DNA of 36,444 nt from a bacterium (GTDB taxonomy: Bacteria > Sysuimicrobiota > Sysuimicrobiia > Sysuimicrobiales > Humicultoraceae): positions 1 through 36,444 of the forward strand of contig JBGQGY010000023.1 in NCBI GenBank assembly GCA_041497675.1, given 5' to 3'. The notes under the pieces are model-generated. The model was given only the letters and a program-made list of their open reading frames with translations, was not told the origin of the DNA and did not search any database. The translations under genes were made by a program, and so were the position numbers. Positions 4,660 through 29,659 of this stretch are shown piece by piece. The first letter of the stretch is position 1. Each line of letters starts with the position of its first letter.

Positions 4660-5328
4660 ATGACCGTCGTTATCGTAGGCGGAGGCAAAGTGGGGAGCTA
4701 TCTGGCGACGTTGCTGCTCGCCGAGGGCCATCGCGCGGTCGTCATCGAGGAACGCCCGGAGCACCTGGAGGCGTTGCGGCGAGACCTTCCCGCCGACGCC
4801 GTGGTCCACGGGAGCGGCACCGATCCGCTGGTCCTTGAACGAGTGGGAGTCCGTGAGGCCAACGTCGTGGCGGCGGTCACGGGCACAGACGAGACGAACC
4901 TTGTCGTGGCAAGCCTGGCGCGTTTCGAGTTCGAGGTGCCCAGAGTCATCGCGCGGGTAAACAATCCCCGAAATGCCTGGATGTTCACACCGGAGATGGG
5001 GGTGGACGTGGCGCTCAACCAGGCTGACCTGATGGCCCATCTGATCGAGGAAGAGATGTCGTTGGGCGACATGATGACCCTGATGAAGCTGCACCGCGGG
5101 CAATATGCGCTGGTCGAAGAACGCGTGCACCCGGGCGCCGCGACCGTCGGGAAGGCGTTGCGCGAAATCCCGTGGCCGCGGGAGTGCGCGGTGGCGGCGA
5201 TCATCCGCAAAGGACAGTTGCTGATTCCCCGTGGAGAGGTCGTACTCCAAGTCGGGGACGAGGTGCTGGCCCTCGTCCACGCGTCTGAAGCTCCCAAACT
5301 GGCGTCACTGCTGGGAGAGCGGACCTAG
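4660..5328 (+). CDS. Second TrkA/KtrA-family RCK protein
   Basis: VVIVGGGKVG, AVTGTDETN, ARVNNPRN, RCK_C domain. AGGAGG at 4647-4652 precedes ATG 4660. Confidence 0.92.
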   Translation: MTVVIVGGGKVGSYLATLLLAEGHRAVVIEERPEHLEALRRDLPADAVVHGSGTDPLVLERVGVREANVVAAVTGTDETNLVVASLARFEFEVPRVIARVNNPRNAWMFTPEMGVDVALNQADLMAHLIEEEMSLGDMMTLMKLHRGQYALVEERVHPGAATVGKALREIPWPRECAVAAIIRKGQLLIPRGEVVLQVGDEVLALVHASEAPKLASLLGERT

Positions 5329-5342
5329 TAGCAGGAGCGCCT

Positions 5343-5894
5343 CTAGGCCGGCTGCGCGACTGCCGTAGTCTCTCGCGCCCCGCGCTCCAGCGCAGCGGCG
5401 TTCAGGGTTTTCGCCTCGGGGTCGGCGACCATCTCATCGAGGACGGCCCGCGCGGTCGCTGTGGTAACCACCGGTCGTATCGCGAGCAGCGCGCCGAGCA
5501 GCACCACGTTCGCCGCGCGCGTCGATCCCAGGCCGGACGCCACGGCCGTCGCCGGGACCGCGACCACGCTGACATCGGTTCGGATGGGCGCACGGGTCAC
5601 CATCGTGCTGTCATAGACGATCATCCCGCCGGGCCGCACCTGCGGTTCGAAGCGGTCAAGGGACGGCCGGTTTAAGACGATGAGGATCGAAGGGTCTGCG
5701 ACCACCGGCGACCCGATGGGCTCGTCGCCGATCACGACCGTACAGTTGGCCGTGCCGCCTCTCTGTTCGGGGCCGTAAGAGGGGAGCCAGGTCACCTCCC
5801 GGCCTTCACGCATCCCCGCCCGCGCCAGCACCTCGCCGAGAAAGAGCACGCCCTGGCCGCCAAACCCCGCGATGACGATCTCATGCGAGGGCAT
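5343..5894 (-). CDS. 2-oxoacid:ferredoxin oxidoreductase gamma subunit
   Basis: [30 protein letters not shown] motifs. Confidence 0.92.
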
Positions 5895-6651
5895 TCTTGA
5901 ACACCCCCAGCGGGTAGGCGGGGATCATGTGTGTCTCGCACCACTTCAGCGATTCGACCGGGTCGAGACCCCAGTTGACCGGACAGGTCGACAGGAGTTC
6001 GACGAGGCCGAGTCCTCGGTCATCGAGTTGGGCCCTGAATGCCGCCAGGATCGCGCGTTTCGCCTTGTGGATGTGCGCCGGATCGATCACCGCTGCGCGC
6101 GCCGCGTAGGCCACGCCGTCCAACTGGGCCAGCAGTTCGGTCATGCGCAGCGGGTAGCCGTGGGTGCGCGGGTCGCGTCCGAGCGGCGTGGTCGTGGTCC
6201 GCATGCCGACGAGCGTCGTCGGCGCCATCTGCCCGCCGGTCATCCCGTAGAGCGCGTTGTTGACGAAGATGACGGTGATGCGCTCGCCGCGAGCGGCGGC
6301 GTGCAAGATCTCCGCCGCGCCGATCGAGGCCAGATCGCCGTCGCCCTGATAGGTAAACACGACGCGGTCCGGTAGCACCCGCTTGATCCCGGTCGCCACC
6401 GCGGGCGCGCGGCCGTGCGCCGCCTGCTGGAAGTCGACGTCGAAGTAGTCGTACGCGAACACTGAGCACCCCACCGAGGCCACGCCGATCGTCCTCGTCC
6501 TGATGTCGAGTTCGTCGATGACCTCGGCGACCAACCGGTGGATGATGCCGTGGGTGCAGCCCGGGCAGTAGTGCATCGGAACGTCCAGCAGCGCGCGGGG
6601 TCTGCCGGCGACCCGTATCATCTCGTCCACTCGTTCGACGACCCCAATCAT
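5881..6651 (-). CDS. 2-oxoacid:ferredoxin oxidoreductase beta (TPP-binding) subunit, Vor-like
   Basis: [33 protein letters not shown]...NN TPP motif, [15 protein letters not shown]. Confidence 0.93.
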
Positions 6652-7703
6652 GCCGGCGCCACCTCCTTGCGGGCTGCGGCCGTCCGGATCGCGCTGGCAA
6701 TCTCCACCGGCGATGGAACCATCCCGCCGACGCGGCCATAGAACTCCACCGGCGCGCGCCCTGCGACCGCCAGCCTGACGTCTTCAATCATCTGGCCGGC
6801 ACTCATCTCGGTGACCAGCCACACGCCCACGGGCCGATCGAAGGGCTCGGCGGGGAACGGCCAGAGGGTGATCGGACGGACCAGACCGGCCGCGATGCCG
6901 TCACGACGCACGCGGTCAACGGCCGAACGCGCGATGCGGGCCATCGACCCGTACGCCACGACCACGACATCGGCGTCGTCCGCACGGTACGTCTCGAACC
7001 GCGGCTCGTGTCGCTGGATCGTGCGAAAGGTCTCCATCAAGGCGAGCACACGCCGCTCGAGGTCTTCGGGCACCAGATACACCGAACTGATAACCCGGCG
7101 GTCACGTTCCGCGCCGGTGGTCGCCCAGGCTGGGGCCGGCGGCGCCGTCCGCGGCTCCGGCAGGATCACCGGTTCCATCATCTGACCCAGCAGGCCGTCG
7201 GCCGCGACGACGGTCGGCAGCCGGTACCGCTCCGCCAGGTCGAAGGCCAGACCGACCAGTTCAATGGCCTCCTGGACGGTCGACGGCGCCAGGACGATCC
7301 CGTGGCTGTCGCCGTGACCCAAGCTGCGTGTCGCCTGGAAGTAGTCGCCCTGAGACGGTGCGATGTTGCCCAGGCCGGGGCCGCCGCGCATCACATTGAC
7401 CACGACACACGGCAACCGCGCACCCACGATGTAGGATAATCCTTCCATCATCAGGCTAAAGCCGGGGCTGCTGGTGGTGGTCATGGTCCGGGCGCCGGCG
7501 CCGGCCGCGCCGTAGACCATATTGATCGCCGCGACCTCGCTCTCGGCCTGGAGGAAGACGCCGCCCGCTTCAGGCAGGTGGCGCGCCATGTATTCTGCGA
7601 GTTCGGTCTGCGGGGTGATGGGATACGCGAAGTACGCTCCGCAGCCGGCCCGGATCGCCGCTTCGGCGATCGCTTCATTGCCCTTCATGAGGACCCGGGT
7701 CAT
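6648..7703 (-). CDS. vorB: 2-oxoacid:ferredoxin oxidoreductase alpha subunit (VorB-like, 3-methyl-2-oxobutanoate dehydrogenase type)
   Basis: [51 protein letters not shown]. Start ATG 7703 overlaps the upstream stop (ATGA). Confidence 0.9.
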
Positions 7704-9932: not shown

Positions 9933-10376
9933 CTAGGGTGCGCGCGTGGCGGGAATCAGGAGCCGTTTGATGGCCGCGACGGCCTTGGGGATCAGTCGGC
10001 GAACCGATGCGGATAGGTCGGTGCCGGGCCGGAAATCGCTGCCGGGCACCCTGACCAGGTACGCTGCTGGCATTCGCCCGTAGAGGCGCCGGGAGAGGGC
10101 GAGGATGGTTTCGGCGGCGATCACATGGGTCAGGGGGCTCCCGTCGTGGGCGTCTGCGGCTTCGCTCACGCGGCTGACGGTCAGCCTGCCGCCGCGCCCA
10201 GCGTCGACGAACACCACGCGGTCGGCCGCGGCCACATCCCCGGCCAGTTCGGGCGTGAGTTGATGGCTCATCCGGACGGTGACGTCCGGCGTATCCTCCA
10301 GACGTTCGGCCACCGCCGGGCCGGCTCCGTCGTCTCCGGCCAGGGGGTTGCCAATGCCGATGACGAGTGTTCTCAT
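9933..10376 (-). CDS. hoxW: Hydrogenase maturation protease (HoxW-like)
   Basis: [39 protein letters not shown]-coupled to hoxH. Confidence 0.88.
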
Positions 10377-11803
10377 CGCGCGTCTCGCCTGAGCGTTTGC
10401 ACCAGACGCCCGGCGGTGTCGATGACGTCCACCACCAGCGGCATGGCGCCGACCGCGTGCGTCGAGCACGACAGACACGGGTCGTACGCGCGAATCGCGG
10501 CCTCGATCCGGTTGAGGATGCCTTCGGTGACGGGGTGGCCGTCGATGTAGTGGCGCGCCACCTGTTCAACGGCGCGGTTCATCGCCAGGTTGTTTTGGCC
10601 GGTGGCGATCAACAAGTTCACGCGGGTGATCAGGCCCTCGTCGTCCACCTGATAGTGATGGAAAAGCGTGCCCCGCGGCGCCTCAGCGACCCCGACCCCC
10701 TCATGGCGGTTGCGGGCGGCGTGCGCGCGCACGTCGTGATCGAGAATCGCCGGGTCGTCGAGCAACTGTCCGATCCGCTCCAGGCCGAAGACGATCTCGA
10801 TGAGCCGCGCGGAATGATAATAGAAGGAACTGAGCACCACGCGGCCGGCGCGCTGCCGGTATTCGGCCAGTTCGGCGTCGGCGATCGGCGTGCCACAGTG
10901 CGAGGCGACGTTCAGTCGTGCCAGCGGCCCCACCCGGTATGAGCCTACGGGATACCCCAACGGACGGTAGTAGGGGAACTTGAGATACGACCATGGTTCG
11001 GTGGCTTCACCCAGGAACTCCCAGTACCGCGTGGGATCCAGGGCATCAGCGACGACCCCGCCGCCTGCGTCGACGATCCGCAAGCGACCGTCATAATGCT
11101 CCAGCCCGCCGTCCGGCGTCACGAGCCCGGCAAAGAGCGATGGGAAGTTTCCAAAAACCTGCGCTTCTTCCCGGTGCCGATCCAACAGGCGTTTGAACAT
11201 CTCGAGGGTCGCACGCGCCGTCTGCAACGCCTCGGGCCACCCGACCAGCAAACGCTCGCGCTGTTCAGGACTCATCGGACCGCTGACCCCGCCGGGGACG
11301 ACCCACGCCGGATGGATGCGCTTCCCGCCGAGGGCCTCGATGATCTCCTGCCCGTACTGACGCAACCGTATGCCCGAGCGCGCCAACTCCGGGTAGCGCT
11401 CGATGACGCCGAGGATGTTACGCGATTCGGGCGGTGCGTCATAGCCCAACAAGAGGTCGGGCGATGACATGTGGAAGAAGCTGAGCGCATGCGACTGGAC
11501 GAGCTGCGCCAAGTGCATCAGACGGCGCAGGCGCTCGGCCGCGGGCGGGATGGCCACAGCCAGCAGCGCGTCGCAGGCCTTGGCCGACGCCATCAGGTGG
11601 CTGACCGGGCATATCCCGCAGACGCGCGAGGTGATGGCGGGCATCTCGTGGAAGAGGCGCCCTTCACAGAACTTCTCGAAGCCCCGAAACTCGGTGACGT
11701 GGAACCGGGCCTCGCGCACGGCGCCCGCGTCGTCGAGGTGCAGCGTGATTTTTGCGTGTCCCTCGATGCGGGTCACCGGATCGATGACGATGCGTCTGGT
11801 CAT
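10373..11803 (-). CDS. hoxH: Group 3d bidirectional [NiFe]-hydrogenase large subunit
   Basis: [11 protein letters not shown]1 motif [18 protein letters not shown]2 motif DPCLSCSTH followed by a cleavable C-terminal extension. Confidence 0.96.
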
Positions 11804-11821
11804 GCGGGGTCTCCTATCCGC

Positions 11822-12379
11822 CTATCCGTACTTCAGGCGGCCGGCGAGGTCGGGTGTCCGGCCGTCCAGGAGATCGGTCAAAACGCTATAGATCAGGTCG
11901 GGCGACGGCGGGCAGCCGGGCAGGTAGACGTCCACCGGTACGACGTGATGCACGGGCAGGACGCGGTCGAGTAGGGCCGGCACGATGCCTTCGGCCGCCG
12001 GCAGGCGCGGGTGCAAGGTCGCCGTCTCGATGTAGGCCCGCTGCAGCACGGATTCGGCGCTGCGCAGGGGGTTGCGCAACGCCGTGACGTTGCCCGTCAC
12101 GGCGCAGTCGCCGAACGAGACCAGAACGCGCGTCCGCTCGCGGATCACGCGGATCTGGCGCAGGTGGTCTTCGTTGGCGACGGCGCCCTCGACGAGCGTG
12201 ACATCGACGTTGTCCGGGAACTCCTTGATGTCGATGAGGGGACTGTAGACGAGGCGCGCGCGCGCGGCGAGATCGATCAGGCGCTCATCCAGGTCGAGGA
12301 AGGACATGTGACAGCCCGAGCAACCGCCCAGCCAGACGGTCGCCAGCCGCGCCAGAGTCTGAGGCGTCACTTGATCCAC
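11822..12379 (-). CDS. hoxY: Hydrogenase small subunit HoxY
   Basis: [32 protein letters not shown]. Start is GTG 12379 or GTG 12370 (GTGA overlap with the hoxU stop). Confidence 0.93.
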
Positions 12380-13083
12380 CGGTGCTTCTCCCTCGCCGTG
12401 GTGATGTACGTGAGGAACTCGCGGTGCTTGACCATCTCGGCCGCGGACACACCCTTCTCGAACAGCGCGCCGGTCGGGCAGACCTGCACACACTTGCCGC
12501 ACGAGGTGCAGGTGTCGGACGTGCCCCATGGTTGGCCCAGGTCGATGATGACCCGCGATGCGTGCCCGCGCCCGGCGACGTCCCACGTGTGGGCGCCCTC
12601 GACCTCGTCGCAGACGCGCACGCACCGCGTGCACATGATGCAGCGGTTGTGGTCGACGACAAAACGCTCGTGTGACGCATCGACGTGCCGCTCCGGCGCG
12701 CGGTACGGATACCGGACGTGCGTCATGCCGACCGCATAGCCAATGGTTTGCAAATCGCAGTGGCCGTTGGCCACGCAGACGGAGCAGATGTGATTGCCCT
12801 CCGCGAAGAGCAACTCCACGATCATGCGGCGGTACGCCTGCAGCCGCGGCGAGTCGGTCGTGACCTCCATGCCTTCGGCCACCTTCGTGACACAGGCCGC
12901 GACCGGTCGGCTCGCCCCCTGCACCTCGACCATGCACAGGCGGCAGGCGCCCACCTCGGACAGGCCGTCGAGATGGCACAGCGTGGGAATCGTGATGCCG
13001 TGCTCGCGCGCCGCTTCTAGGAGCGTCTCGTCCTCGTGGGCGCCGACCGGCGCGCCGTTAATGGCCAGCGTCTTGACGCTCAC
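12367..13083 (-). CDS. hoxU: Diaphorase Fe-S subunit HoxU
   Basis: IPTLCH...GACRLC...AAC [2Fe-2S]; [29 protein letters not shown] and [16 protein letters not shown]-coupled to hoxF. Confidence 0.95.
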
Positions 13084-14726
13084 GGCGCCACCCCTGCGGA
13101 TGGCGCCGGCTGCATCACACAGACGCCGGCCGGGCACGTCCGATCGACAATGTGGCTCACGTACTCGTCGCGGAAATGGCGCAGCGTCGAGAGCAGCGGG
13201 TTCGGTGCGTTTTGTCCCAGACCACACAGGCTGGCATGTCTGACCATGTCGCTCAACTCCTCCAGCAGGATCAGATCGGCCGTCGTCGCCTCTCCACGCG
13301 TGATCTTGACCAGCAGGTCGTGCATCTGCACGGTGCCGGCGCGGCAGGGGATGCATTTGCCGCACGACTCGTCCATGCAAAAGCGCATGAAGTACCGGGT
13401 CAGGTCGACCAGACAGGTGGTGTCATCCAGGACGATCATGCCACCCGACCCCATCATCGAGCCGAGACCGGTCAGGGACTCGTAGTCCACCGGCGTGTCG
13501 AGCAACGAGGCCGGGACGCAACCGCCACCGGGTCCGCCGGTCTGCACGGCCTTGATGGTCCGCCCGGGCAATGGGCCACCCGCGATGTCCTCGACGATAC
13601 GCCGCAGCGAGATCCCCATCGGCACCTCGATCACGCCGGTGCGCCGCACCGAACCGGCTAGGCTGAAGACCTTGGTGCCCCGGCTGCGTTCGGTGCCGAT
13701 ACCCGCGTACCAGGCGGCGCCCCGCGCGATGACGGCCGGCACGCTCGCGAACGTCTCGACATTGTTGATCAACGTGGGCGCCCCCCAGAGTCCGGACTCG
13801 GCCGGATAGGGTGGCCGCGGGCGCGGCTGCCCGCGCTTGCCTTCGATGGAGGCGATGAGCGCGGTTTCCTCGCCGCACACGTATGCGCCGGCGCCGATGC
13901 GCAACTCCACGCTGAAGCTGAAGCCTGAATCGCCGAGGCGCGCGCCGAGCAGCTGCAAGGCTTCCGCCTGGCGAATCGCAATCCGCAGGCGCTTGATGGC
14001 CATCGGGTACTCGCCACGAACATAGATATAGCCATGGGTGGCGCCGACCGCGTAGGCACCGATCGCCATCCCTTCGAGGACGCGGTGCGGATCGCCCTCG
14101 AGCACCGTGCGATCCATGAATGCGCCTGGGTCGCCCTCATCGGCGTTGCAGATGACGTACTTGCGCTCGCCCGGCGACTTGGCAACGGTCGTCCACTTCA
14201 ACCCGGTGGGGTATCCTGCGCCACCCCGGCCCCGAAGGCCGCTGGCGCGCACCTGCTCGATCACTTCCGCGGGCGTCATGTCCTTGACGGCGCGCGCCAG
14301 GGCGCCATAGGCGCCGGCGGCGATCGCCTCTTCGATGCGTTCGGGATCGATGCGGCCGCAGGAGGTCAGGACCACGGGCTGCTGGCCGGCGAAGAATGCG
14401 GCGTCGGACTCCAGGCTGAGATGGTGGACGGGCGTACCGCGGCGCACATGCCAGGAGACAACCTCGTCGACTTCATGCGATGAGGGACACGCGTACAGGG
14501 TGCCCTCGGGTTCGACCCGTACGAGCGGACCGGCGCTGCACAACCCCATGCAGCCGGCTCGCGTGACTTCGATGCCTGTCGCCGCCTCGTTGACGAAGGC
14601 CTGCCGGATGCCCTCGGAGCCCCGCGCCATGCAGCCGGCGCCGGTGCACACGCGCACGAGGTGCGTGCAGCCTCGCCGGCGCTGCCGCTCGGCCGCTGCG
14701 ATGCCGTCGAGCGCTTCGCGCATCAT
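13080..14726 (-). CDS. hoxF: Diaphorase flavoprotein HoxF (NuoF family)
   Basis: N-terminal CTGAGC...GCMGLC [2Fe-2S], [53 protein letters not shown]-coupled to hoxE. Confidence 0.95.
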
Positions 14727-15217
14727 GGTGTGCCCGCCCACTGCCGCACCCGCGCGACGACCTCGGCGGTACTCCGCGCGCCGGTGATCTCACCGTCGAA
14801 GACGACCACGGGTGCCTGGTTGCACGGCCCCAGACAGCGCACGGCGTGCACCGACACCACCCCGTCCGATCCGGTGGTGCCGGCCCGTACGCCGGTCGCG
14901 TGTTCCACGGCGGCGAGGACGTCGTCGGCACGCTTCACATAGCAGGCCGTGCCGGTGCAGACCGTCACCCTATGACGGCCGGGTGGGGTCAGCGAGAAGA
15001 AATGGTAGAAGGTCGCCACGCCGTACACGCGGCTCAGCGGAGTGGCCAGCCCGTGCGCGACATACGCGAGCACCTCGAGCGGCAGGTGGCCGAACCGGCG
15101 TTGGGCGACGTGCAGTACCTCGATCAGGCCGTCGGGTTGGCGTCCCTGGCGTCCCATCGCCTCGTCCAGTTCGCGATAGCGCGGGTCGAAGGCGGCGCGG
15201 TCCTGCGCGGACGTCAT
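14723..15217 (-). CDS. hoxE: HoxE (NuoE-like [2Fe-2S] subunit)
   Basis: LIEVLHVAQ, SRVYGVATFYHFF, CTGTAC...CLGPC. ATGA-coupled to hypB. Confidence 0.93.
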   Translation of the reverse strand: MTSAQDRAAFDPRYRELDEAMGRQGRQPDGLIEVLHVAQRRFGHLPLEVLAYVAHGLATPLSRVYGVATFYHFFSLTPPGRHRVTVCTGTACYVKRADDVLAAVEHATGVRAGTTGSDGVVSVHAVRCLGPCNQAPVVVFDGEITGARSTAEVVARVRQWAGTP

Positions 15218-15882
15218 GACCGGTGCCCCCGCGGCTGCCCGACGATCCACTCGATCCACGGGTTCAGCCCGTCGCCCGTCGAGGCCGAGAGCGCAAACAG
15301 CGGCGCCTGCGTGACCTGCCGCAGGCCTTCTGCGAACGTCTCCATGGAAAAGTTGGTGAACGGCAGCAGGTCGATCTTGTTGAGGATGACGGCATCCGCG
15401 CGGGCAAAGGTGGAGGGGTACTTCCACGGTTTGTCATCGCCCTCCGGCACGCTCGCGACCACGACCCGCAGGTGCTCGCCGAGATTGTAGGCCGCCGGGC
15501 ACACCAGGTTGCCGACGTTTTCGATGGCCAGGACGTCGAGATCGGTCAACGCGAGACGGGTCAGCGCGGTGCGGACGAGATGCGCGTCGAGATGGCAGGC
15601 GTTGCCGACCAGACGCGTCTCGATCTGCACGGCGGGCACCCCGCACCGGGAGAGACGCTCCGCGTCACGGGTGGTGGCGATGTCACCCTCGATGACCCCA
15701 AGGCGAAGGCGCGAGCGCAGGAGCGCGGCCGTGCGCTCGAGCACCGCAGTCTTCCCGCTGCCCGGCGATCCGATGAGGTTGAGCGCCAGCACGCCGGCGG
15801 CGTCCAGCGCCGCACGGACCTCCTCGGCCAGCGCGTCGTTTGCACGCAGCACGCGCTCGACCACCTCGACACGCATCGTCAT
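15214..15882 (-). CDS. hypB: Hydrogenase nickel-insertion GTPase HypB
   Basis: GSPGSGKT, IEGD, CHLDA, ENVGNLVCPA, EGDDKP-x-KYP, NKID. No His-rich N-terminal extension. Confidence 0.95.
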   Translation of the reverse strand: MTMRVEVVERVLRANDALAEEVRAALDAAGVLALNLIGSPGSGKTAVLERTAALLRSRLRLGVIEGDIATTRDAERLSRCGVPAVQIETRLVGNACHLDAHLVRTALTRLALTDLDVLAIENVGNLVCPAAYNLGEHLRVVVASVPEGDDKPWKYPSTFARADAVILNKIDLLPFTNFSMETFAEGLRQVTQAPLFALSASTGDGLNPWIEWIVGQPRGHRS

Positions 15883-16121
15883 TCCCCCTCCAACCACGTG
15901 AGGCGCAGGTCGGCGCCGTCGGCATCTTCGATGTCGAGCACGGCCCGCCCCAGCACGGGCCCTTCCCGCAGGATCTCAAACGCCATCGCCAGCGCGTGCG
16001 TGGCGACGCCACTCAATCGACCGACGCGAACCCCTACCCTGTTCACCGCCCGCAGCCCGTGATTGGCGGCCGCCACGGAGGCTTCGTTCAGCAGCGAATC
16101 GGCCAGCGACAGTTCGTGCAC
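15879..16121 (-). CDS. hypA: Short HypA-like nickel metallochaperone lacking the zinc finger
   Basis: MHELSLA Ni-binding N-terminus, VGRLSGV, A-x-L-x-I, C-terminal G-x-DLRL-x-x-LE. Only 80 aa, with no cysteines. SD AGGGAG upstream. Confidence 0.85.
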   Translation of the reverse strand: MHELSLADSLLNEASVAAANHGLRAVNRVGVRVGRLSGVATHALAMAFEILREGPVLGRAVLDIEDADGADLRLTWLEGE

Positions 16122-16133
16122 CGCCGTCTCCCT

Positions 16134-16898
16134 CTAGAACGTCTGATTGGCCAGCGCGAGCATGCAGCGTGTATAGCGCTCCAGGTGCATCGCCTGCGCG
16201 GGCGTCAGCACCCAACACGCCCATCGCCAGTGAAACGCCAGGATCTGGCCCGGCGCCGCGCCGTCCAGGAACCGATCGTCGCCGATCGCCCTGAGAATGC
16301 GTACGGGTTGCGGCGCGCCGAAGTCCAGCCGTCCATCGTGGCTGACGATCGGACGATAGGATACCGTGAACGCCTCCGGGTCCATGGTGGTGATGGCGCC
16401 CCAGCCGATCCGGCAGTGGTCCAACCCGTCGGACAGCGGCCTGCCGGTGCGGCGCCAGACGTCAAAGACATGGAACGCGTGGTGCGCGCGGGCGCCGGCG
16501 ATCGGCTTGCCCACCAGGAGGTCGAGTGTCGACGGCCGGACTCGCCCGCGAAAACGCTCGTGTAGGTGCTGCGCGTAGCGCGGCCAGTCCACCCGCTCTA
16601 ACAGATCGTTGCCAATCCAGTATGCTTCGACGACCCGCGCGTCGAGCGCGTCGGCGATTCCGTTGGCGGCCGCGATGAGCTTCAGATAGGGGTAGGCGCC
16701 TTCAAAGGTTCGCAGGTGGCGTCGCAGGCCCTGATCGGCGGTCTGTTCCTTGAGATAGGCGAGCAACTCGGCGTTGACGTCTCCGCCGCAGTATCCGAGG
16801 TGGTTGGGCATGAACGCGAACCGCGCGAACAACAGCATCCCGTTGAGAGACGCGGCGCCGCTCGCTTCGGAGGTCGACAGTGTTGGCGCTTCTCGCAT
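16134..16898 (-). CDS. Cys/His-motif protein resembling DUF6390 (hydrogenase-cluster associated, function unknown)
   Basis: FARFAFMPNHLGYCG, FEGAYPYL-x-LIA, VVEAYWIGN, HHAFHV, DHCRIGWG, HWRWAC. Family assigned from memory of these motifs, not from a search. Confidence 0.75.
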   Translation of the reverse strand: MREAPTLSTSEASGAASLNGMLLFARFAFMPNHLGYCGGDVNAELLAYLKEQTADQGLRRHLRTFEGAYPYLKLIAAANGIADALDARVVEAYWIGNDLLERVDWPRYAQHLHERFRGRVRPSTLDLLVGKPIAGARAHHAFHVFDVWRRTGRPLSDGLDHCRIGWGAITTMDPEAFTVSYRPIVSHDGRLDFGAPQPVRILRAIGDDRFLDGAAPGQILAFHWRWACWVLTPAQAMHLERYTRCMLALANQTF

Positions 16899-16907
16899 CA
16901 CACCCAC

Positions 16908-17756
16908 CTATCGCGGCGACGGATTCAGCCGGGACTCGATCTCGCGACCAGCAGCAATCAACCCCAGGGTGGTCGCGACAATGCCGATCGCGGGTGGGCC
17001 GGCCCACCACGCCCATGCATCGGTCACGAACAGCAAGGGATAGGTCAACGCCTGATGCAGGATCAGGCCCCAACTCACACGCGAGGGGTCGGCCAGTCCC
17101 AGCAGGCCCAGCGTGGCCTCCATCAGGATGGCCCACCGGGCGGTCAACAGGAACTTGGTGAAGAGGATCGGGGCGATCTCGGGCACGATGGCGGAGCGGA
17201 TGATGCGGGCCTCAGACGCCCCCTGCGCGCGCGCCGCCTCCACGTAATCCCTTCCCCACGTTGCGGTGACCTGCATGCGCACGATGCGCGCAAACGGCGC
17301 CCAACTCAGGAGGGCCAGGATGCCGATCAGCGACCAGAGGCCGGGCCCCAGGGTTGCGATCAGCAGCACGGCCAGCGGCATGCTGGGCACCGCGAGGAAG
17401 AGATCGATAACGGTGAGCGCTACGCCACGACCTCTGCCCCGGCTCCCGGCTGCGACCCCGGCGAGGGCCGACAGGATCACCGACAGCGCCGCCGCCGAAA
17501 ACCCCACGATAAGCGATGTCTGCGCCCCGTAGATCATCTGGCTGAACAGGTCATGTCCCTGTGCGTTGGTGCCCAGCCAGAAGCGCGGCGTGGGTCCGCT
17601 CACCGGATCGCCGACGATCCGCTGCGGGTCCATCGGCAGGAGCAGCGGTGTCAGGGTGGCCGCGGCGGCGACGAACAGCAGGAGGGCCGCGCCGATCAAC
17701 GCTGCGGCCGGCAGCGCGCGAGGCCTGGGTGCCGAGAGCGCGGCGGTGGTGATCAT
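16908..17756 (-). CDS. ABC permease, NikC/OppC/DppC type
   Basis: WLGTNAQGHDLFSQMIYGAQTSL, EAA loop DYVEAARAQGAS, EATLGLLGL-x-DP-x-x-x-SWG. Confidence 0.92.
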   Translation of the reverse strand: MITTAALSAPRPRALPAAALIGAALLLFVAAAATLTPLLLPMDPQRIVGDPVSGPTPRFWLGTNAQGHDLFSQMIYGAQTSLIVGFSAAALSVILSALAGVAAGSRGRGRGVALTVIDLFLAVPSMPLAVLLIATLGPGLWSLIGILALLSWAPFARIVRMQVTATWGRDYVEAARAQGASEARIIRSAIVPEIAPILFTKFLLTARWAILMEATLGLLGLADPSRVSWGLILHQALTYPLLFVTDAWAWWAGPPAIGIVATTLGLIAAGREIESRLNPSPR

Positions 17757-18706
17757 GACGGGGCGCTCCGGGGATCCAGCCGGGCGCCGATCGCGTCGAG
17801 GGCAAAGTTCGTCGTCAGCACCGCGAGGCTGGAGACGAGGACGATCCCCTGCAAGAGCGGATAATCACGGGTCGACACGGCTTCGAAGAGCAACCATCCC
17901 ATGCCGGGATAGGCAAACAGACGCTCAACGACGGCCGCGCCGGCGACAGCGGCACCGAGCCGTAGCCCCAACAGCGTGACCACCGGTGGAAGCGCGTTGC
18001 GCCACACGTGCCAGGCCAGGCGCCGCGCGGGCAATCCGCGGGCCCGGGCTGCGGTCAGGAACGGCGCGCCGAGCACGGGAGCAATGGCGTTGCGGACGAG
18101 CAACGCGAACGCCGGGGCGATGATGAGCACAAGCGTGAGCCCGGGCAACACCGCGTGCCACGCAAGATCAATCAGGCGCTGGAGCACGCCCGCGTCGTCG
18201 ATGAAGAGTGTCTGCCCGCCCCCCGGCGGAAATACGCGCAGCTTCGACGCGAGCCCCACGATGAGGAGCATCCCGAGCAAGAACTCGGGCAACGCTCCGA
18301 TCCCGAACACGGCGGACGTCAGCACCCGTGTCCCGTTTTCCCTTGGGTGGGTCGCGGCACGCCAACCCACCGCTGCCCCGAAGACCGCCGCCACCAGGAC
18401 GGCGCCGCCCACGAGGCCCAGCGTCCACGGGAGTCGCTCGGCGAGCACCAGGCGGACCGCGCGGTGCGACGTCATCGACCAGCCGAGGTCGCCGTGTCCC
18501 AAGTCCGCGAGGTAGCGGGTGAACTGTCGCCACAGCGGATCATCCAGGTGATAGGTCTCTGTCAGGATCTGCCGCGCCGCCGCGGGCAGCGCGGCCGCCT
18601 GATCGCCGCCTGCCACCGGGCTGCCCGGGAGCCAGCGGGGCAGCACGAAGTTGAGCCCCACGAGCAGCGCGGCCACCCCCGCATAGCGCAGCAACCGATG
18701 CGTCAT
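17753..18706 (-). CDS. ABC permease, NikB/OppB/DppB type
   Basis: LNFVLPRWLPG, LDDPLWRQF, GDLGWS, FLTAARARGL, VERLFAYPGMG, RDYPLLQG. ATGA coupling on both sides. Confidence 0.92.
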   Translation of the reverse strand: MTHRLLRYAGVAALLVGLNFVLPRWLPGSPVAGGDQAAALPAAARQILTETYHLDDPLWRQFTRYLADLGHGDLGWSMTSHRAVRLVLAERLPWTLGLVGGAVLVAAVFGAAVGWRAATHPRENGTRVLTSAVFGIGALPEFLLGMLLIVGLASKLRVFPPGGGQTLFIDDAGVLQRLIDLAWHAVLPGLTLVLIIAPAFALLVRNAIAPVLGAPFLTAARARGLPARRLAWHVWRNALPPVVTLLGLRLGAAVAGAAVVERLFAYPGMGWLLFEAVSTRDYPLLQGIVLVSSLAVLTTNFALDAIGARLDPRSAPS

Positions 18707-20235
18707 GGCAGGAAGATCACCTTGTTTTCGATCAGCGGGATGCCGTTCATCAGCCCGCCCCGCGTGGCGACCGGCCGGAGTTTGCGGCCGTCGTAGACCC
18801 ACGTGAAGCGTCGGTAGTAGAGGGCCAGGGTCGGGAGCTCCTCGGCCAGGATCGCCTGCATCTGATTCACGACACCACGACGGCGGACCGGGTCGAGTAT
18901 TTCCGCCTGCTCGCGGGCAAGACGCGCGTAGGTCGGATCCGCGAAATCGGAGCCTTGTCCAAACTGGTTTGCATCCTCGCCGGTCATCCACCGCCGGAGG
19001 TAGTCGGGATCGCCGCCTGCGCCAATGTGGGAGGTCAGGGCCAGCTGGAACTTGCCCTCCCCAATCAGCGCCGCCCGCGTTCGCGCGTCGACGACCCTCG
19101 CCACCGCATCGATCCCTACCGCCCGCAGCATCTCCTGTATCAATGGGACGGCGGGAGACGGGCTGGCCAGCAGTTCGATCTGGGATGACGACAGGCCGGA
19201 CGCACTTTGGAGCGTTCGCGCCCGCACCGGGTCATAGGGGTAGGCGCGCGTCCCCGGCGCGTACCAGGGATCCGTAGGCGGGACGAGCCCCGGGCTACCG
19301 GGGATACCGGCGCCGCGAGTCAGCGTCAGCGCGAGTTGCGTGCGGTTGAGCGCGTAGGCGATGGCCTGGCGTGCCATCTTAGGCTCGAAGGGCGGACGCC
19401 GGAGGTTGAACAGCAGACGCGCCACCGAGAGTGGCTCAGTGCGCCAGACGCGAAGATACGAGTGACCGGCAAACGCCCGCGCGACCTCTTCGGCGTCCGT
19501 CATGGCCACGTCGACCTCGCCGCCCTGCACCGCGAGCATCTGCCGCTCGGGGGCGACCAGCAGGTACTGGATCTCGCCAACGGCGGGGCGCCCGCGGAAG
19601 TACCGGGGATTGGCACCGAGCCGGTATGCGCCGGCGGTGGGACGGTAGTCGACGAGTCGATAGGGACCGGTGCCCACCGCCATCGCAAGGGTCTGCGCGC
19701 GCTGCGGCTCCTGGACGTCCTTCCAAACGTGTTCAGGGATGATGGGGACGATGCCGGCGACGTCGTGGAGGAATGGGGCAAACGGCCGCCGCAGACGCAG
19801 CCGCACCGTGAGTGCGTCGTCGGCAACGACGCCAACCACCATGCTGGTATCGACCCATGCAAACGGGTGAGCGCGGTAATACTCGAACGTAAACTGGACG
19901 TCGCGCGCGGAAAAGGGACGGCCGTCGTGCCACACGACGCCCGGGCGAAGATTGAACGTGTAGGTCGTGCCGTCAGGCGAGACGCGCCAGGACTGCGCCA
20001 ACCACGGGATCGTCCCGGTGTCGTCCTTCCAGACCAGGGAGTCGTAGATCAGACTCAGGCGGACGAGCCCGCCGGGGCCCAGGGTCGAGACGGCGAACGG
20101 CGTGAGGAATCCCACGTCCGTCCACCAGGCGATGCGGACGACATCTAACGCCGTCACGGCGCCGGCAACAGATGAGGCGACCACAAGGAGCACGACGGCG
20201 AGGAGCGCGAGGCGGCAGAGGAGTACCGTCCTCAC
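18703..20235 (-). CDS. ABC substrate-binding protein, family 5 (NikA/OppA type), probably for nickel by context
   Basis: Signal peptide, LIYDSL, PWLAQSW-x-VS-x-DG-x-TYTFNLR-x-GV-x-WHDG-x-P, VGTGPYRL. GTGA-coupled to hypC. Confidence 0.9.
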   Translation of the reverse strand: MRTVLLCRLALLAVVLLVVASSVAGAVTALDVVRIAWWTDVGFLTPFAVSTLGPGGLVRLSLIYDSLVWKDDTGTIPWLAQSWRVSPDGTTYTFNLRPGVVWHDGRPFSARDVQFTFEYYRAHPFAWVDTSMVVGVVADDALTVRLRLRRPFAPFLHDVAGIVPIIPEHVWKDVQEPQRAQTLAMAVGTGPYRLVDYRPTAGAYRLGANPRYFRGRPAVGEIQYLLVAPERQMLAVQGGEVDVAMTDAEEVARAFAGHSYLRVWRTEPLSVARLLFNLRRPPFEPKMARQAIAYALNRTQLALTLTRGAGIPGSPGLVPPTDPWYAPGTRAYPYDPVRARTLQSASGLSSSQIELLASPSPAVPLIQEMLRAVGIDAVARVVDARTRAALIGEGKFQLALTSHIGAGGDPDYLRRWMTGEDANQFGQGSDFADPTYARLAREQAEILDPVRRRGVVNQMQAILAEELPTLALYYRRFTWVYDGRKLRPVATRGGLMNGIPLIENKVIFLP

Positions 20236-20462
20236 GAGTCCGCATCCTCCGCGTCGATCTCGTGCCAAACCTCGAGGATCTCAGCGGCCTCGTCTGCGGT
20301 GACAACATTAGTGGCCGACCCGTAGGTGACGAGCACGTAGGTTCCCGGTACGACCGGGCCGATCAGGGATATGTCAATCTGACGCGAGCCGCCCGGCCCC
20401 TCGCCGACGGCGCGGGCGGTATCGAGTAGCGTGACGATGCGATACGGCAGCGCAAGGCACAT
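20232..20462 (-). CDS. hypC: HypC/HybG/HupF-family chaperone (His-less variant)
   Basis: MCLALP N-terminus, PG-x-YVLV-x-x-G-x-A, EA-x-E-x-L helix. The canonical VLVH is replaced by VLVT. Confidence 0.85.
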   Translation of the reverse strand: MCLALPYRIVTLLDTARAVGEGPGGSRQIDISLIGPVVPGTYVLVTYGSATNVVTADEAAEILEVWHEIDAEDADS

Positions 20463-23041: not shown

Positions 23042-23869
23042 CTAGATCTGGTCGCGCCCGTCGAAGAGCGCCACGGCGATCAGCACCGGCGCGACGGTCC
23101 ACAGGGCCAGCGCGCCGGCCAGCAACGCGGTCGCGCCACCCGATCCAAATCGCGCGATCAGGAAGCCGCCGACCGGTCCCAGCATCTCCAGGGACGAATC
23201 GAGCAGCAGCAGCGCGAGCAGGCGCGCGATGTCAACCGGATTGAGCAGCAAGAGCGCCGCGAGCAGCCGTGTCCCCGCGCCGGCCACCGCGCCGGCGCCG
23301 ATCAGCATCAGGTCGAAGAAGACCACACTGGCGAACCAGACCACGAGGGCCATGGCCGTCGCCCGGGTCCTGCTGCGCGCGGCAACAGCGATGACGATGC
23401 CGATGGCCAGGTAGACGGCGGCCAGGGCCAAGGAGATGCCCAGGAAGGCCAGGTATTGCAGCCCGCCGGTCGCGCCGGTCGCCAACCCGACCAACACACC
23501 GGCCAACCCGAAGCCGGTCAGGGTTGCCAGCCCGATCGCCGCGAGCGAGCCCACGAATCGACCGATGAGCAGTTCGCTGCGTTCGACCGGCTGCGCCAGG
23601 AACAGTTCCAATGCGCCGGATTCGCGGTCGCCGCTGATGCCCGCGCTGCCCAGTAGCAGGGCGACCAACGGCACCAACAGCAAGCACAGGTTGATGAGGC
23701 TGGCGGTGGTGCGGCCGTAGCCTTCGAGGCCGACAGCGCCGATCGTAGACAGCCCGATCAGCGACAGCCCGAGCGCCAGCACGGCGAACAGGGCTCCGTA
23801 CGCGAGGAGCCACCGGTTGCGTATGGCTTCGCTCAGCTCATACCGAGTCATCACGAGAATGGCGTTCAT
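23042..23869 (-). CDS. nosY: ABC permease NosY
   Basis: E-x-x-EAIRNRW, LVPLVALLLG...DRESGALELFLAQPV-x-R, LLLNPVD-x-x-R. Downstream of nosF. Confidence 0.9.
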   Translation of the reverse strand: MNAILVMTRYELSEAIRNRWLLAYGALFAVLALGLSLIGLSTIGAVGLEGYGRTTASLINLCLLLVPLVALLLGSAGISGDRESGALELFLAQPVERSELLIGRFVGSLAAIGLATLTGFGLAGVLVGLATGATGGLQYLAFLGISLALAAVYLAIGIVIAVAARSRTRATAMALVVWFASVVFFDLMLIGAGAVAGAGTRLLAALLLLNPVDIARLLALLLLDSSLEMLGPVGGFLIARFGSGGATALLAGALALWTVAPVLIAVALFDGRDQI

Positions 23870-24756
23870 CGATTGGTGGCCTCGCCGAGACGGCGGGCGT
23901 CGATCGACGGCTCTTCGAGATGCACACCGAGCGGATGCAACCCGGCGGCAGCCACGGCGGCGAGGAGATCGAACGCCGTGCCGACCGGTGTCGTAGCCAC
24001 GACGGTGCTTTGCGTCTGCGTGAACTGCACTCCCGGCCGCGCTTCCAGCAGATCGGCCAGTTCCTTGTGCCCGGTGCCGTTGAGCGTGAAGATGACCCGC
24101 TGCTGGACGGCCATGCCCATGCCGTCTGGCCGGCCGCTGTAGACGAGCCGGCCGCGGTCGAGCACCATCGCGCGTGAGGCCACGGCCAGCGGGTCGGCGA
24201 CCAGGTGCGTGGCCAGGACGATCGTTCGACCGGCTTTCGCCAGCGCCTCCAGGTCGCGATGCAAGGCGCGCCGCGCCTGCGGATCCAGATGCGCCGCCGG
24301 TTCGTCGAACAGGATGACCGCAGGATCTGCCTGGAGCGCCGTCGCGAGCGCCAACCGCTGCCGCATGCCGCCCGACAGCGTCCGCACCGCGGCGTCGGTC
24401 TGGGCCTCGAGCCCGACGCGCGTGAGCCACTCGGCGTCGCCGCGGCGCAGACCGCGCAGGCGCGCGAAGAGATCCAGCACTTCCAGGCAGGTCAGGTCGG
24501 GTGGGAAGGAAGGACGCTGGGGCACATAGCCGATCAACCGGCGCGCCGCCTTCCCGTCGTTCAGCACATCGTGGCCACCGACGGTCGCCGCGCCTTCAAA
24601 CGCCAGCAGCCCGGCCAAGCACCGCAACAGGGTCGTCTTCCCGGCGCCGTTCGATCCGAGCAACACCGCGAACGCGCCCGGCTCGATCGTCGCCGTGACG
24701 CGGTCGAGCGCGGTCGTGGCGCCGAAGCGTTTGGTCAGGTCGCGAATCGCGATCAC
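23866..24756 (-). CDS. nosF: ABC ATPase NosF
   Basis: Walker A GSNGAGKT, LSGGMRQR, FDEP, H-loop ATH. GTGA-coupled to nosD. Confidence 0.92.
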   Translation of the reverse strand: MIAIRDLTKRFGATTALDRVTATIEPGAFAVLLGSNGAGKTTLLRCLAGLLAFEGAATVGGHDVLNDGKAARRLIGYVPQRPSFPPDLTCLEVLDLFARLRGLRRGDAEWLTRVGLEAQTDAAVRTLSGGMRQRLALATALQADPAVILFDEPAAHLDPQARRALHRDLEALAKAGRTIVLATHLVADPLAVASRAMVLDRGRLVYSGRPDGMGMAVQQRVIFTLNGTGHKELADLLEARPGVQFTQTQSTVVATTPVGTAFDLLAAVAAAGLHPLGVHLEEPSIDARRLGEATNR

Positions 24757-26753
24757 CGCGATCGCCGTCCCGGTCTGAGCGCGGCGAGGCTCAGGGCCGC
24801 CGGAACGAGCAGGAGTGCGCCGATCCAGAACACGCCGGCGTGTGGGGCGGTCTCCGAACCCGTCGAAGGGACCGGCGGCACTCCGCTGGCGGGTGGCTTC
24901 ATCAGTGGGGCGCGGTCCTCCACCACGGGCGCGGCACCGAGCAACGGGAGCATCCGTGCGGCCGTGTCGATGGCATGGTGGGCCGGGGTGAAGAGAAACG
25001 CCTGCAGCGCCGGAACGCGATCCGCCAGGTCTTCCAGCAGGTCGGTTCGGCGGTAGGGGACGTCACCAACGCCGTCACCGGCAACGTCAAAACCGGTGTA
25101 GTCGCCCCAGTAGTTGCCGCGACCGTCCACCCACCAGTGGTTGGCATCGGCCCGTACGGCGCCCCGCGATTGGACCTGCCGCAGGTTCTCGACGATGGTG
25201 TTCTCAGTAACGGTGATCGCCGCGGTGCTCATCAGCGAGAAACCGGTCTCGTTGAAGGCGATCAGGTTCCGCTCGACCTTGACCCAGCCGTCGGGCGTCG
25301 ACGGCGCGTTGTCGAACTCCAGCGCGATTCGGTTGCGGACCACGCGGTTCTCGCGGATCAGGACGCGGTCGACATCTTTGAAGATCAGGCCGACGCCGAT
25401 CTCGGCCGACCGGCTGCCCTCGAACGTGTTGCCCGCCAGCGTGACGTCGGCCGAGTTCATGACGGCTCCGCCCACCGCGTTGTCCTTGAACACGTTGGCG
25501 CGAAACGCGTTGTTGTTCGAGTACATGTAGTGGATTCCATAACGGCATCCCGAGACGGTGTTGTGTTCGACGGTTATCAGGTCCGAGAACGAGATGTAGA
25601 ACCCGTCCTTCCCCCGCGTGATGCGGTTGTGACGCACTTGCACGCTCCGCGCTTTCCACAGATAGACCGCATGCCCGCGCCGCTCCACCGGCAGGTCGGC
25701 GGTGGCGATCGTATTGTCCTCGACGATCGTCCCCGTCGTCCCGGCCAGGTACACGCCAAACAGCACGTCGGTCACCTGGTTGTTTCTAATCACCGCTCGA
25801 TCGCCTCGAACGACAATCCCAGCAGCCTCGCTACTGTATGCCAGCGCGCTGCCTCGAATCACGAACCCCTCCAGCCGCACATCCGGTCCGGTGATGACCA
25901 CAACGTCGCCTCGCCGTTCGCCGTCGATCACCGGATAACCCTCGCCGCGGAGCGTGATCGGTCGTGAGAGGACCAGCGGGCCGCGATACCATCCCGCCGG
26001 CACGGTGATGACCGCACCGGGAGGCGCCGCCGCGACGGCCGCCGCCAGGTCGAACGCGCTGGGCGGCGCGGCATGGGCAGCGAGCGGGAGGGCCGTGAGC
26101 GCCATGATGAACGCCAGTCCGGTGACGGCCGCGGCCGTCATGACCTGCCGCCGCGCGCGACCGCCGGCGGGCAGCCGCGGCCCCAGGGTCAGCAGCAGCG
26201 CGCTCAGCGCGAAGAGGAGCAGCCCCGGCCCGGGCCAGGCCGTGACGTTGAAGTTCATCACCACCGTTGGGCCGATCACCTTGGGGGTAAACGCGGGCAT
26301 CCGGAACGCCGCGTTCGGGTTCAGCGTGTGGCCGAACACGTAGAGTCTATACTGCAGATCCACGAGAAATCCAAACGGCAGCGCCCAGGCTCCCAAGACG
26401 ACCAATAGGCGGAATGCCCTCCACGCTACGAAGGGGAGGGCCAGGATCGCCAGCGCGAGCATCGCGACACCCGGGGTGAAGAGCCGCAGTTCCGGGAACA
26501 CTTCCTCCAACCCTTCGCTTCGCTCGCGATCCTCACCGGGCTCGGCCCCGGGTATGGGCCGCATCCCGATATAGTGATTGAGGGTGTTTAACTCGTCGAC
26601 ATCGCCGCGGGTGCCGCGTCCATCGATGAGGAGTCGTACCCCCTGAGGATACTGCGGCGCGTGCAGCGTCATCGTCCACAGCGGCAGCGCCGCGCCGGCG
26701 AGCAGCATCGCGAGCGCTCCGCCCGTCACCGCGATCCGTTGAAGGCGATTCAT
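24753..26753 (-). CDS. nosD: Fusion of a NosB-like membrane domain (N-terminal) and NosD copper-maturation beta-helix (C-terminal)
   Basis: N-terminal PLW-x-x-x-L-x-APQYP-x-G, LNTLNHYIGM, FGH-x-L-x-P-x-A. C-terminal RYGIHYMYS, GNYWGDY-x-GFD-x-x-GDGVGDVPY, D-x-x-PLM. One uninterrupted 666-aa frame. Confidence 0.88.
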   Translation of the reverse strand: MNRLQRIAVTGGALAMLLAGAALPLWTMTLHAPQYPQGVRLLIDGRGTRGDVDELNTLNHYIGMRPIPGAEPGEDRERSEGLEEVFPELRLFTPGVAMLALAILALPFVAWRAFRLLVVLGAWALPFGFLVDLQYRLYVFGHTLNPNAAFRMPAFTPKVIGPTVVMNFNVTAWPGPGLLLFALSALLLTLGPRLPAGGRARRQVMTAAAVTGLAFIMALTALPLAAHAAPPSAFDLAAAVAAAPPGAVITVPAGWYRGPLVLSRPITLRGEGYPVIDGERRGDVVVITGPDVRLEGFVIRGSALAYSSEAAGIVVRGDRAVIRNNQVTDVLFGVYLAGTTGTIVEDNTIATADLPVERRGHAVYLWKARSVQVRHNRITRGKDGFYISFSDLITVEHNTVSGCRYGIHYMYSNNNAFRANVFKDNAVGGAVMNSADVTLAGNTFEGSRSAEIGVGLIFKDVDRVLIRENRVVRNRIALEFDNAPSTPDGWVKVERNLIAFNETGFSLMSTAAITVTENTIVENLRQVQSRGAVRADANHWWVDGRGNYWGDYTGFDVAGDGVGDVPYRRTDLLEDLADRVPALQAFLFTPAHHAIDTAARMLPLLGAAPVVEDRAPLMKPPASGVPPVPSTGSETAPHAGVFWIGALLLVPAALSLAALRPGRRSR

Positions 26754-27223
26754 GACTGCTCCTTCGCCATCGCCGCGAGCAGGTCGTCCAAGGTCATCAC
26801 CGGCGCCTTCGGGTAGGCTCGATGCGCTTCGGCGTTGTCCGCGTATGCGGCGATGTTGTAATTCATCGGAGTCCGGATGACGGGAGATCGCACGTACCAG
26901 GCGTGGGGCGCGTCGATCCAGGCCTCTGTGCCCGCGTCGTGGACGAACCCCTTCGCGTGACCCGATGCGGCCGCATCAGCGCTATGGCGGATCAGGCACC
27001 CGATGTCGTCGAAACGATGGACGGTCGATCCCCCGCGCGTGGCGGCCGCGAACCGCCGGTCGCCGATGATCATGCCGCACTGCTCACAGCGATCGCGTCC
27101 ATAGGCGATCGCCGGGGCGCCGCTCTCGTCGCCCTGACGGGTCGCCAGTGCCCACAGTGCGGGGGCCGCCGCCGCGGCCGCGGCCCCACCGATCGCCACC
27201 CTGAGGAATCGTCGTCGTGTCAT
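26750..27223 (-). CDS. nosL: NosL-family copper chaperone with a twin-arginine leader
   Basis: MTRRRFL leader, CEQCGMII, FDDIGCL, WI-x-A-x-x-A-x-YV, RTPM. Confidence 0.88.
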   Translation of the reverse strand: MTRRRFLRVAIGGAAAAAAAPALWALATRQGDESGAPAIAYGRDRCEQCGMIIGDRRFAAATRGGSTVHRFDDIGCLIRHSADAAASGHAKGFVHDAGTEAWIDAPHAWYVRSPVIRTPMNYNIAAYADNAEAHRAYPKAPVMTLDDLLAAMAKEQS

Positions 27224-27239
27224 CCCATCGTCTCCGCGC

Positions 27240-27264
27240 CGGGGGAGGGCGACGCCCTCCCCCG
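27240..27264 (-). terminator. Perfect 11-bp GC hairpin between nosZ and nosL (transcript stabiliser or partial terminator)
   Basis: CGGGGGAGGGC-GAC-GCCCTCCCCCG, with no U-tract on either strand. Confidence 0.6.
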
Positions 27265-27278
27265 CAGGACTCGCGTGC

Positions 27279-29252: not shown

Positions 29253-29266
29253 GTCCATCCCTCCTG

Positions 29267-29659
29267 TCATGGGTGTCGTGCCAGATCTGCGATCGTGACG
29301 TCGTCGAGCAAACCTTCGAATGCGTGCTGAATCCGGCCGAGCGTCAGACGTACCGGGCAGGGTTGCTTGCACGGGCAGTCGTTCCAGGCGAGGCACCGCG
29401 CCACAACGATGGGACCCTCGATGGCCTCAATGACCTGCCGAACGGTCATCCGTTCAGGCGCCCGGGCGAGCCGCACGCCGCCCCCCGCGCCCCGGCTGGT
29501 GCGGACGATGCCACCCCGGGCCAGCTGCTGCACGACCTTGCCCGCCTGAGCGGGAGGGATGCCGCGCCGGGCGGCAATAGCTGCTGTCTGGCCCGGTCCG
29601 TTGACGGCCAGGTCGAGCAGGGTGCGCAGCGCAAACTGGGTGGCTCGAGTCAATTCCAT
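29267..29659 (-). CDS. Rrf2-family Fe-S transcriptional regulator (NsrR/IscR-like)
   Basis: M-x-LT-x-x-x-x-FALR, wHTH with RGAGGG-x-x-LAR-x-P, IEAIEG, Cys cluster CLAWNDCPCKQPC, TIADL. Confidence 0.92.
   Translation of the reverse strand: MELTRATQFALRTLLDLAVNGPGQTAAIAARRGIPPAQAGKVVQQLARGGIVRTSRGAGGGVRLARAPERMTVRQVIEAIEGPIVVARCLAWNDCPCKQPCPVRLTLGRIQHAFEGLLDDVTIADLARHP

Follow-up and report, generated by a model that had tools for sequence, protein, structure and literature searches.

HypA and HybF (PF01155; structures 6G81/2KDX, 3A43, 5AUN and 5YXY) are proteins of about 113-139 residues in which a nickel domain with an N-terminal Met-His-Glu (MHE) motif is accompanied by a zinc site built from two CxxC motifs. 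All HypA proteins have been said to have nickel and zinc sites (PMC7055735; this and the other papers are cited for the portions of their text that were available). HypA belongs to the canonical HypABCDEF maturation set of [NiFe] hydrogenases, as in E. coli and T. kodakarensis. HypD, HypE and HypF are regarded as required for assembling the iron-cyanide centre of these enzymes. All six Hyp proteins have been stated to be necessary (PMC12134894), and HypC binds the iron unit through its Cys2 (PMC11565642).

Here we describe a hypA gene from a bacterium of the order Sysuimicrobiales, found in a window of 36,444 nucleotides (contig JBGQGY010000023.1 of assembly GCA_041497675.1). Its product shares with HypA/HybF the N-terminal MHE and the whole nickel domain including the last strand, and the gene adjoins hypB in a [NiFe]-hydrogenase operon (Table 1). 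It differs in having no zinc domain, no cysteine and a length of only 80 residues; since both CxxC motifs are missing, we classed it as a variant with a presumed HypA-like function and not as a canonical member. The operon shares with the canonical system a HypA-like protein, a GTPase HypB, Cys2 of HypC, a maturation protease and a four-Cys large subunit with a C-terminal extension, whereas HypD, HypE and HypF went undetected, the usual His is missing from HypC, and a DUF6390 protein and an Opp importer are encoded among the hydrogenase genes. HypA-like proteins with both CxxC motifs have been reported (10.1101/2022.11.16.516518, available portion) and are not relevant here.

Table 1. Coordinates of the hydrogenase operon in the window and of the sites in and around its hypA gene.
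Feature	Position	Strand	Basis
hypC, Cys2 kept, usual His gone	20232..20462	-	Profile and alignment
Family 5 solute-binding protein	18703..20235	-	Start set at GTG overlapping hypC stop
OppB/NikB-like permease	17753..18706	-	Profile matches
OppC/NikC-like permease	16908..17756	-	Profile matches
DUF6390 protein, helical N-part and C-terminal HypC-like domain (about residues 162-250)	16134..16898	-	PF19927
Shine-Dalgarno-like GAGGGAG	16128..16134	-	Sequence; overlaps DUF6390 stop
Zinc-free HypA, 80 residues, GTG start, no Cys	15879..16121	-	Translation, Pfam, predicted structure
N-terminal M-H-E nickel motif codons	16113..16121	-	Translation; H2 and E3 conserved
Junction, residues 67/68, zinc-domain site of full-length HypA	15918..15923	-	Alignment
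hypB, GTPase type, short N-terminus	15214..15882	-	TIGR00073, 245 bits (cut-off 121)
hoxE-like subunit	14723..15217	-	Best match NF005747, 213.8 bits, just below cut-off 224
hoxF-like diaphorase subunit	13080..14726	-	Profile matches
hoxU	12367..13080	-	NF005745 over cut-off
hoxY-like small subunit	11822..12370	-	Profile matches
hoxH-like [NiFe] large subunit, both CxxC motifs, C-terminal extension	10373..11803	-	Profile matches
Hydrogenase maturation protease	9933..10376	-	TIGR00072, 80.4 bits (cut-off 47.45)

The short hypA gene and its product

The operon runs in the order hypC-oppABC-DUF6390-hypA-hypB-hoxEFUYH-protease on the minus strand (9933-20462). Scans of the sequence returned one promoter-like site, against 1.4 expected, and seven terminator-like sites, against 4.0 ± 2.4 expected. 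The hypA gene begins 12 bases after the DUF6390 gene and directly precedes hypB, and its GC content at codon position 3 (0.82) matches that of its neighbors (0.82-0.88). Translation agrees with the first-pass annotation in giving 80 residues, a stop codon and no cysteine. The MHE motif that it had called intact is present: the start codon is GTG, so the M holds once the initiator is read as Met, and H2 and E3 are invariant in all 57 short HypA forms. A Shine-Dalgarno sequence and ATGA coupling to hypB had also been proposed. The purine-rich run GAGGGAG is found 6 bases upstream of the GTG, and the hypA stop and a hypB ATG do overlap as ATGA, but another in-frame ATG lies 2 bases past the hypA stop, and several relatives have an ATG at this second position with GTGA as the overlap there. 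The start of hypB is therefore uncertain, and the two genes abut whichever start is used.

The Pfam HypA profile matched residues 1-68 only, over profile positions 1-68 of 112 (52.1 bits, cut-off 28.9), and the NCBIfam model TIGR00100 gave 50 bits, below its cut-off of 88.1. When aligned with 51 full-length HypA proteins, all read from DNA, the short protein has its gap between residues 67 and 68. The missing stretch is 32-47 residues long, most commonly 33, and the G-x-D/E-L opening of the last strand returns to register after it; the zinc finger is gone, as had been noted. The joining sequence pointed out earlier, LDIEDADGADLRL, comprises residues 62-74. In this region an AlphaFold2 model made from the alignment of the 57 short forms (pLDDT 97) has a strand at residues 61-67, a turn, and a strand at 72-79, bearing out the earlier view that the final strand was kept by way of a short turn. 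Structure prediction, one of the checks then suggested, returned the whole nickel-domain fold: 80 of 80 residues aligned with residues 1-115 of H. pylori 6g81 (Z 13.7, rmsd 1.6), and all 80 with residues 1-134 of T. kodakarensis 3a43 (Z 13.6, rmsd 1.7). The next match in the structural search reached only Z 6.6, and the top 11 Foldseek rows were all HypA. As modeled, the short protein is the HypA alpha/beta nickel domain in its entirety, and a short turn at the usual place of the zinc domain connects the third strand with the last.

No other HypA was found in the source genome (98.6% complete, 272 contigs). Its fragmentation, together with the score below the NCBIfam cut-off, might suggest a pseudogene or a deletion made in assembly. 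However, contigs from two further public runs read across the junction with neither gap nor insert (X14, 14700-16121; X2, 15872-17000), and the 61 genomes of the order include 15 with a HypA of 79-81 residues encoded immediately before hypB, namely the source genome and 14 relatives; HypA scores above the Pfam cut-off in 30 of the 61. RNA contigs are short, with a depth of about 2, and one of them (X19) spans 15871-16053 with 11 differences. All 105 hypA pairs have dN/dS below 1, with a median of 0.34 (hypB, 0.18), as calculated pairwise by Nei-Gojobori from pairs that are not independent and of which the distant ones are near saturation. Values for close within-genus pairs are 0.09-0.33, and a 98% identical metagenome copy shows 13 synonymous and 2 non-synonymous codon differences. 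The short HypA is real, conserved and under purifying selection, and a pseudogene or assembly deletion is highly improbable. The first-pass annotation had asked for dN/dS and had argued that the gene was not a pseudogene; the constant length in 14 relatives, the purifying selection and the independent contigs over the junction agree with it. Neither of the two sequence-based objections it had raised against itself, an assembly deletion or a lack of shortened homologues, was borne out, the latter given the 14 relatives and at least 51 short forms among the 150 cluster representatives listed (see below).

Distribution and history of short HypA

Zinc-free HypA is found again in other phyla, including cases alongside normal HypD and HypF. 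At least 51 of the 150 50%-cluster representatives listed were clean short HypA; these catalogue forms were chosen by eye from protein records and not checked against DNA, so some may be errors. ESM Atlas clusters of HypA have representatives of 81, 74 and 87 residues, with 140, 131 and 60 members, respectively. Among 80 loci from named genomes, eight carry clean short HypA: four from close relatives, three from Desulfobulbaceae and one from a member of the Spirochaetota. HypD is present in all four of the Desulfobulbaceae and Spirochaetota genomes, where the short protein is the only Pfam HypA match and its gene adjoins hypB, with hypF adjoining as well in three of the four loci. A second zinc-free type of 87-90 residues, with a longer acidic and proline-containing loop at the hinge, was found in three genomes of the order (L027/G048, L031/G055 and L033/G054). 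The opposite loss was also observed, in that a second HypA-like reading frame at locus L130 (G029:C44, about 52900-53210, plus strand) has both CxxC motifs and lacks MHE.

The history of the short form was examined in a nickel-domain tree of 64 DNA-read rows and 80 columns, from which L012 was excluded as a long branch. The label short or full-length changes four times on this tree, and at least two of the changes are forced by starred branches. The source HypA lies within a starred clade of nine short rows, and the short forms of Desulfobulbaceae group with full-length proteins of the same family, in a starred set holding 14 full-length rows. One origin for all short HypA was considered and rejected: a single clade of all 14 short rows gave a p-AU of 0.027, a modest result, with only 80 columns and a group picked after an earlier tree. 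In that earlier tree, with the zinc columns kept, p-AU was 0.115 for 12 rows. A 107-row tree that includes catalogue proteins needs 24 changes, seven of them forced. Loss and ancient absence are indistinguishable from the tree alone; from these sequences, the zinc domain was likely lost repeatedly, more than once, at the hinge. No description of a zinc-free HypA was found in the literature searched, with most subscription papers outside it, and this widespread single-domain variant is apparently undescribed.

Proposed nickel delivery by a single-domain HypA

The most likely reading, and one we consider well favored, is that the product is a functional nickel chaperone made of a single domain. 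Nickel would be handed over from the G-domain site of HypB, held at the N-terminal M-H-E site of the short HypA, and then given to immature HoxH. HypB, by way of a hydrophobic stretch at its N-terminus, and the large subunit, by way of its N-terminal tail, would both dock on the nickel domain. With both partners docking on the nickel domain, the zinc domain is proposed to be an accessory that is removable at the hinge. The source HypB keeps C96, H97 and C128, which are invariant in 52 rows, and a CH...C metal-site motif of the HypB G domain is described in the available part of PMC13202556. The same protein has a short N-terminus with V-E-V just before the G domain, and two hydrophobic residues just before the G domain of HypB are needed for HypA binding (PMC3287977, available portion). 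A model of the HypA-HypB complex scored 0.49, against 0.01 for the best control, and gave no interface; its runs share at least 95% of contacts, and partner pLDDT is at least 88. Of 157 solved complexes, 116 attain the mark for such models, as do 2 of 215 mismatched pairs; just 18 of these complexes and both of these mismatches attain it at scores of 0.60 or less. The model lends weak support to HypB binding by the short HypA. Urease was sought as a second nickel client and gave no match over cut-off in the genome.

Several observations count against a working chaperone. Single Cys mutants of the H. pylori zinc site retain 9-60% of hydrogenase activity (PMC7055735, PMC5557546), and the zinc site has been called essential for partner interaction (PMC13202556), in the portions available. 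In the T. kodakarensis HypAB complex, the tight nickel site uses His98. Judged by its position, His98 should fall in the stretch that the short HypA lacks, and no stand-in His is conserved in the short form. Asp40, a proposed nickel ligand of the H. pylori protein, is Ala in the short HypA; this position is Val in 36 of 51 full-length relatives. The dN/dS of hypA is also about twice that of hypB.

A rival reading is a weakened or adaptor-only HypA that keeps the link between HypB and the large subunit, binds nickel poorly and is compensated by nickel import through the Opp system. The difference in dN/dS (0.34 against 0.18) and the absence of any conserved extra nickel ligand favor such a protein, as do the two permeases, which match nickel/oligopeptide families best, all below cut-off, and the statement that high nickel can bypass HypAB (PMC12134894, available portion). 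But all 57 short forms keep H2 and E3, the short protein is also the sole HypA where HypD is canonical, and the same solute-binding protein is carried by genomes with full-length HypA (G009, G017 and G023). We consider a weakened HypA unlikely and retain the working chaperone as the better account. The importer genes (16908-20235, minus strand) comprise a binding protein and two permeases with no adjoining ATPase gene, and dipeptide- and nickel-binding proteins score alike against the binding protein.

HypD, HypE and HypF and the DUF6390 cassette

No match to HypD was found in the source genome (98.6% complete, 272 contigs), which gave only weak paralogue matches, far below cut-off, to HypE and HypF; HydG, an alternative source of CN and CO, was not found in it either. 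A large-subunit match occurs in 37 of the 61 genomes of the order, and DUF6390 in 29, all within those 37. HypD is found in six of the 61 and HypE in the same six, and DUF6390 was accompanied by HypD in none of its 29 genomes. Similarly, a second phylum, to which a Ktedonobacteraceae genome belongs, was covered by 201 genomes, of which 20 have DUF6390 and 97 HypD, with an overlap of zero against 9.7 expected; we give no probability for this exclusion because kin genomes are not independent. It is unlikely that hypDEF merely went unassembled, as HypD and HypE are found in 0 of 29 DUF6390 genomes, one of which (G009) consists of four contigs. A partial HypF-like match below cut-off (G016:C4:84401-85042, profile positions 383-598) was seen in a DUF6390 genome lacking both HypD and HypE.

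The conserved His of HypC is missing in 16 of 16 cassette HypC proteins, and all 25 others have it. At its C-terminal end, DUF6390 resembles the HypC/HybG/HupF family (PF01455; 2Z1C, 2OT2), but here the HypC-like part follows, in one fused protein, a helical domain of some 160 residues with invariant Cys and His. This C-terminal part matched the HypC profile with a probability of 88.7 (E 2.6e-6, 40 columns) and its His aligned; comparison with HypC structures gave a VIA Z of 8.5 (rmsd 2.1, 71 residues) and a middling Foldseek E-value of 0.048. The pocket motifs of HoxH are identical to those of large subunits from HypDEF genomes. In relatives, the cassette lies upstream of hoxEFUYH or of a more distant type of large subunit. 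Of the 29 DUF6390 genomes, 25 have an orthologue of the solute-binding protein, which also occurs in one further genome of the source genus and in none of the six HypD genomes. The four DUF6390 genomes without it belong to one family, and in both that were examined the cassette contains an EamA gene: at L131 (G053) and L142 (G059), the DUF6390 cassette has a full-length HypA, and EamA follows hypB in place of the Opp genes.

Zinc loss might instead be an adaptation to a DUF6390 route, with the shortened HypA fitted to act alongside DUF6390 and a HypC without the His. In the order, each of the 18 genomes carrying zinc-free HypA has DUF6390 and lacks HypD, and the two genes are only 12 bases apart here. 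Yet the 18 genomes are kin and represent about two events, full-length HypA adjoins DUF6390 in the HypD-less genomes G047, G053, G056 and G059, and zinc-free HypA sits beside hypB, and in three of four loci also hypF, in HypD genomes. We consider such an adaptation distinctly improbable. On the same two grounds, zinc-free HypA in HypD genomes and full-length HypA beside DUF6390, we rejected a tie between the loss of the zinc domain and the loss of hypDEF.

DUF6390 and HypD never co-occurred in these two sets of genomes, an exclusion that may not be universal but that hints at a so far undescribed way of making the iron centre. We tentatively suggest, as a possibility somewhat short of an even chance, that the operon is a complete, undescribed [NiFe] maturation system free of HypD, HypE and HypF, in which the importer would supply a cyano-iron unit, or the ligands for one, to be loaded into the large subunit of a working hydrogenase by DUF6390 together with the His-less HypC, and the zinc-free HypA and HypB would add nickel. 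The unit would arrive ready-made, through OppABC here and through EamA in the sister family. Nickel is the plain alternative as the cargo of this importer. No paper on DUF6390 was found in the literature searched, and no hydrogenase arrangement without hypDEF is described there.

Other hydrogenase-related genes were observed in this survey. The plus strand of the window begins, at the contig start, with two reading frames resembling membrane and 4Fe-4S subunits followed by a hydrogenase-type protease (11-1200); this second protease matches Pfam HycI (about 676-1200), and a matching large subunit was not found. At G000:C57, about 5300-6900 on the minus strand, a large-subunit-like protein, putatively Ehr-like, lacks the NiFe-binding Cys motifs. 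A large subunit with two in-frame TGA codons, perhaps encoding selenocysteine, occurs in the HypD-less genomes G009 and G017 (L134, G009:C1 near 808972-810522). The window also encodes, at 23042-29659 on the minus strand, a Sec-dependent nitrous-oxide reductase, which scores above the TIGR04246 cut-off, accompanied by nosL, nosD, ABC genes and a regulator of the Rrf2 type.

What the zinc domain contributes to HypA is debated: mutants indicate that it matters, and reviews treat it as universal. A natural, selected and, as the tree suggests, repeatedly evolved deletion of this domain is a direct test of its role, and an 80-residue minimal chaperone would be useful in structural studies and in producing hydrogenases in other hosts. 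In addition, the operon flags genomes that retain [NiFe] hydrogenases while HypDEF is missing, contrary to the six-Hyp rule in the available text of PMC12134894. If these HypDEF-less hydrogenases are active, there would be a second way to the Fe(CN)2CO centre. Zinc-free HypA by itself is of moderate interest; maturation without HypD, HypE and HypF would matter more, if true.
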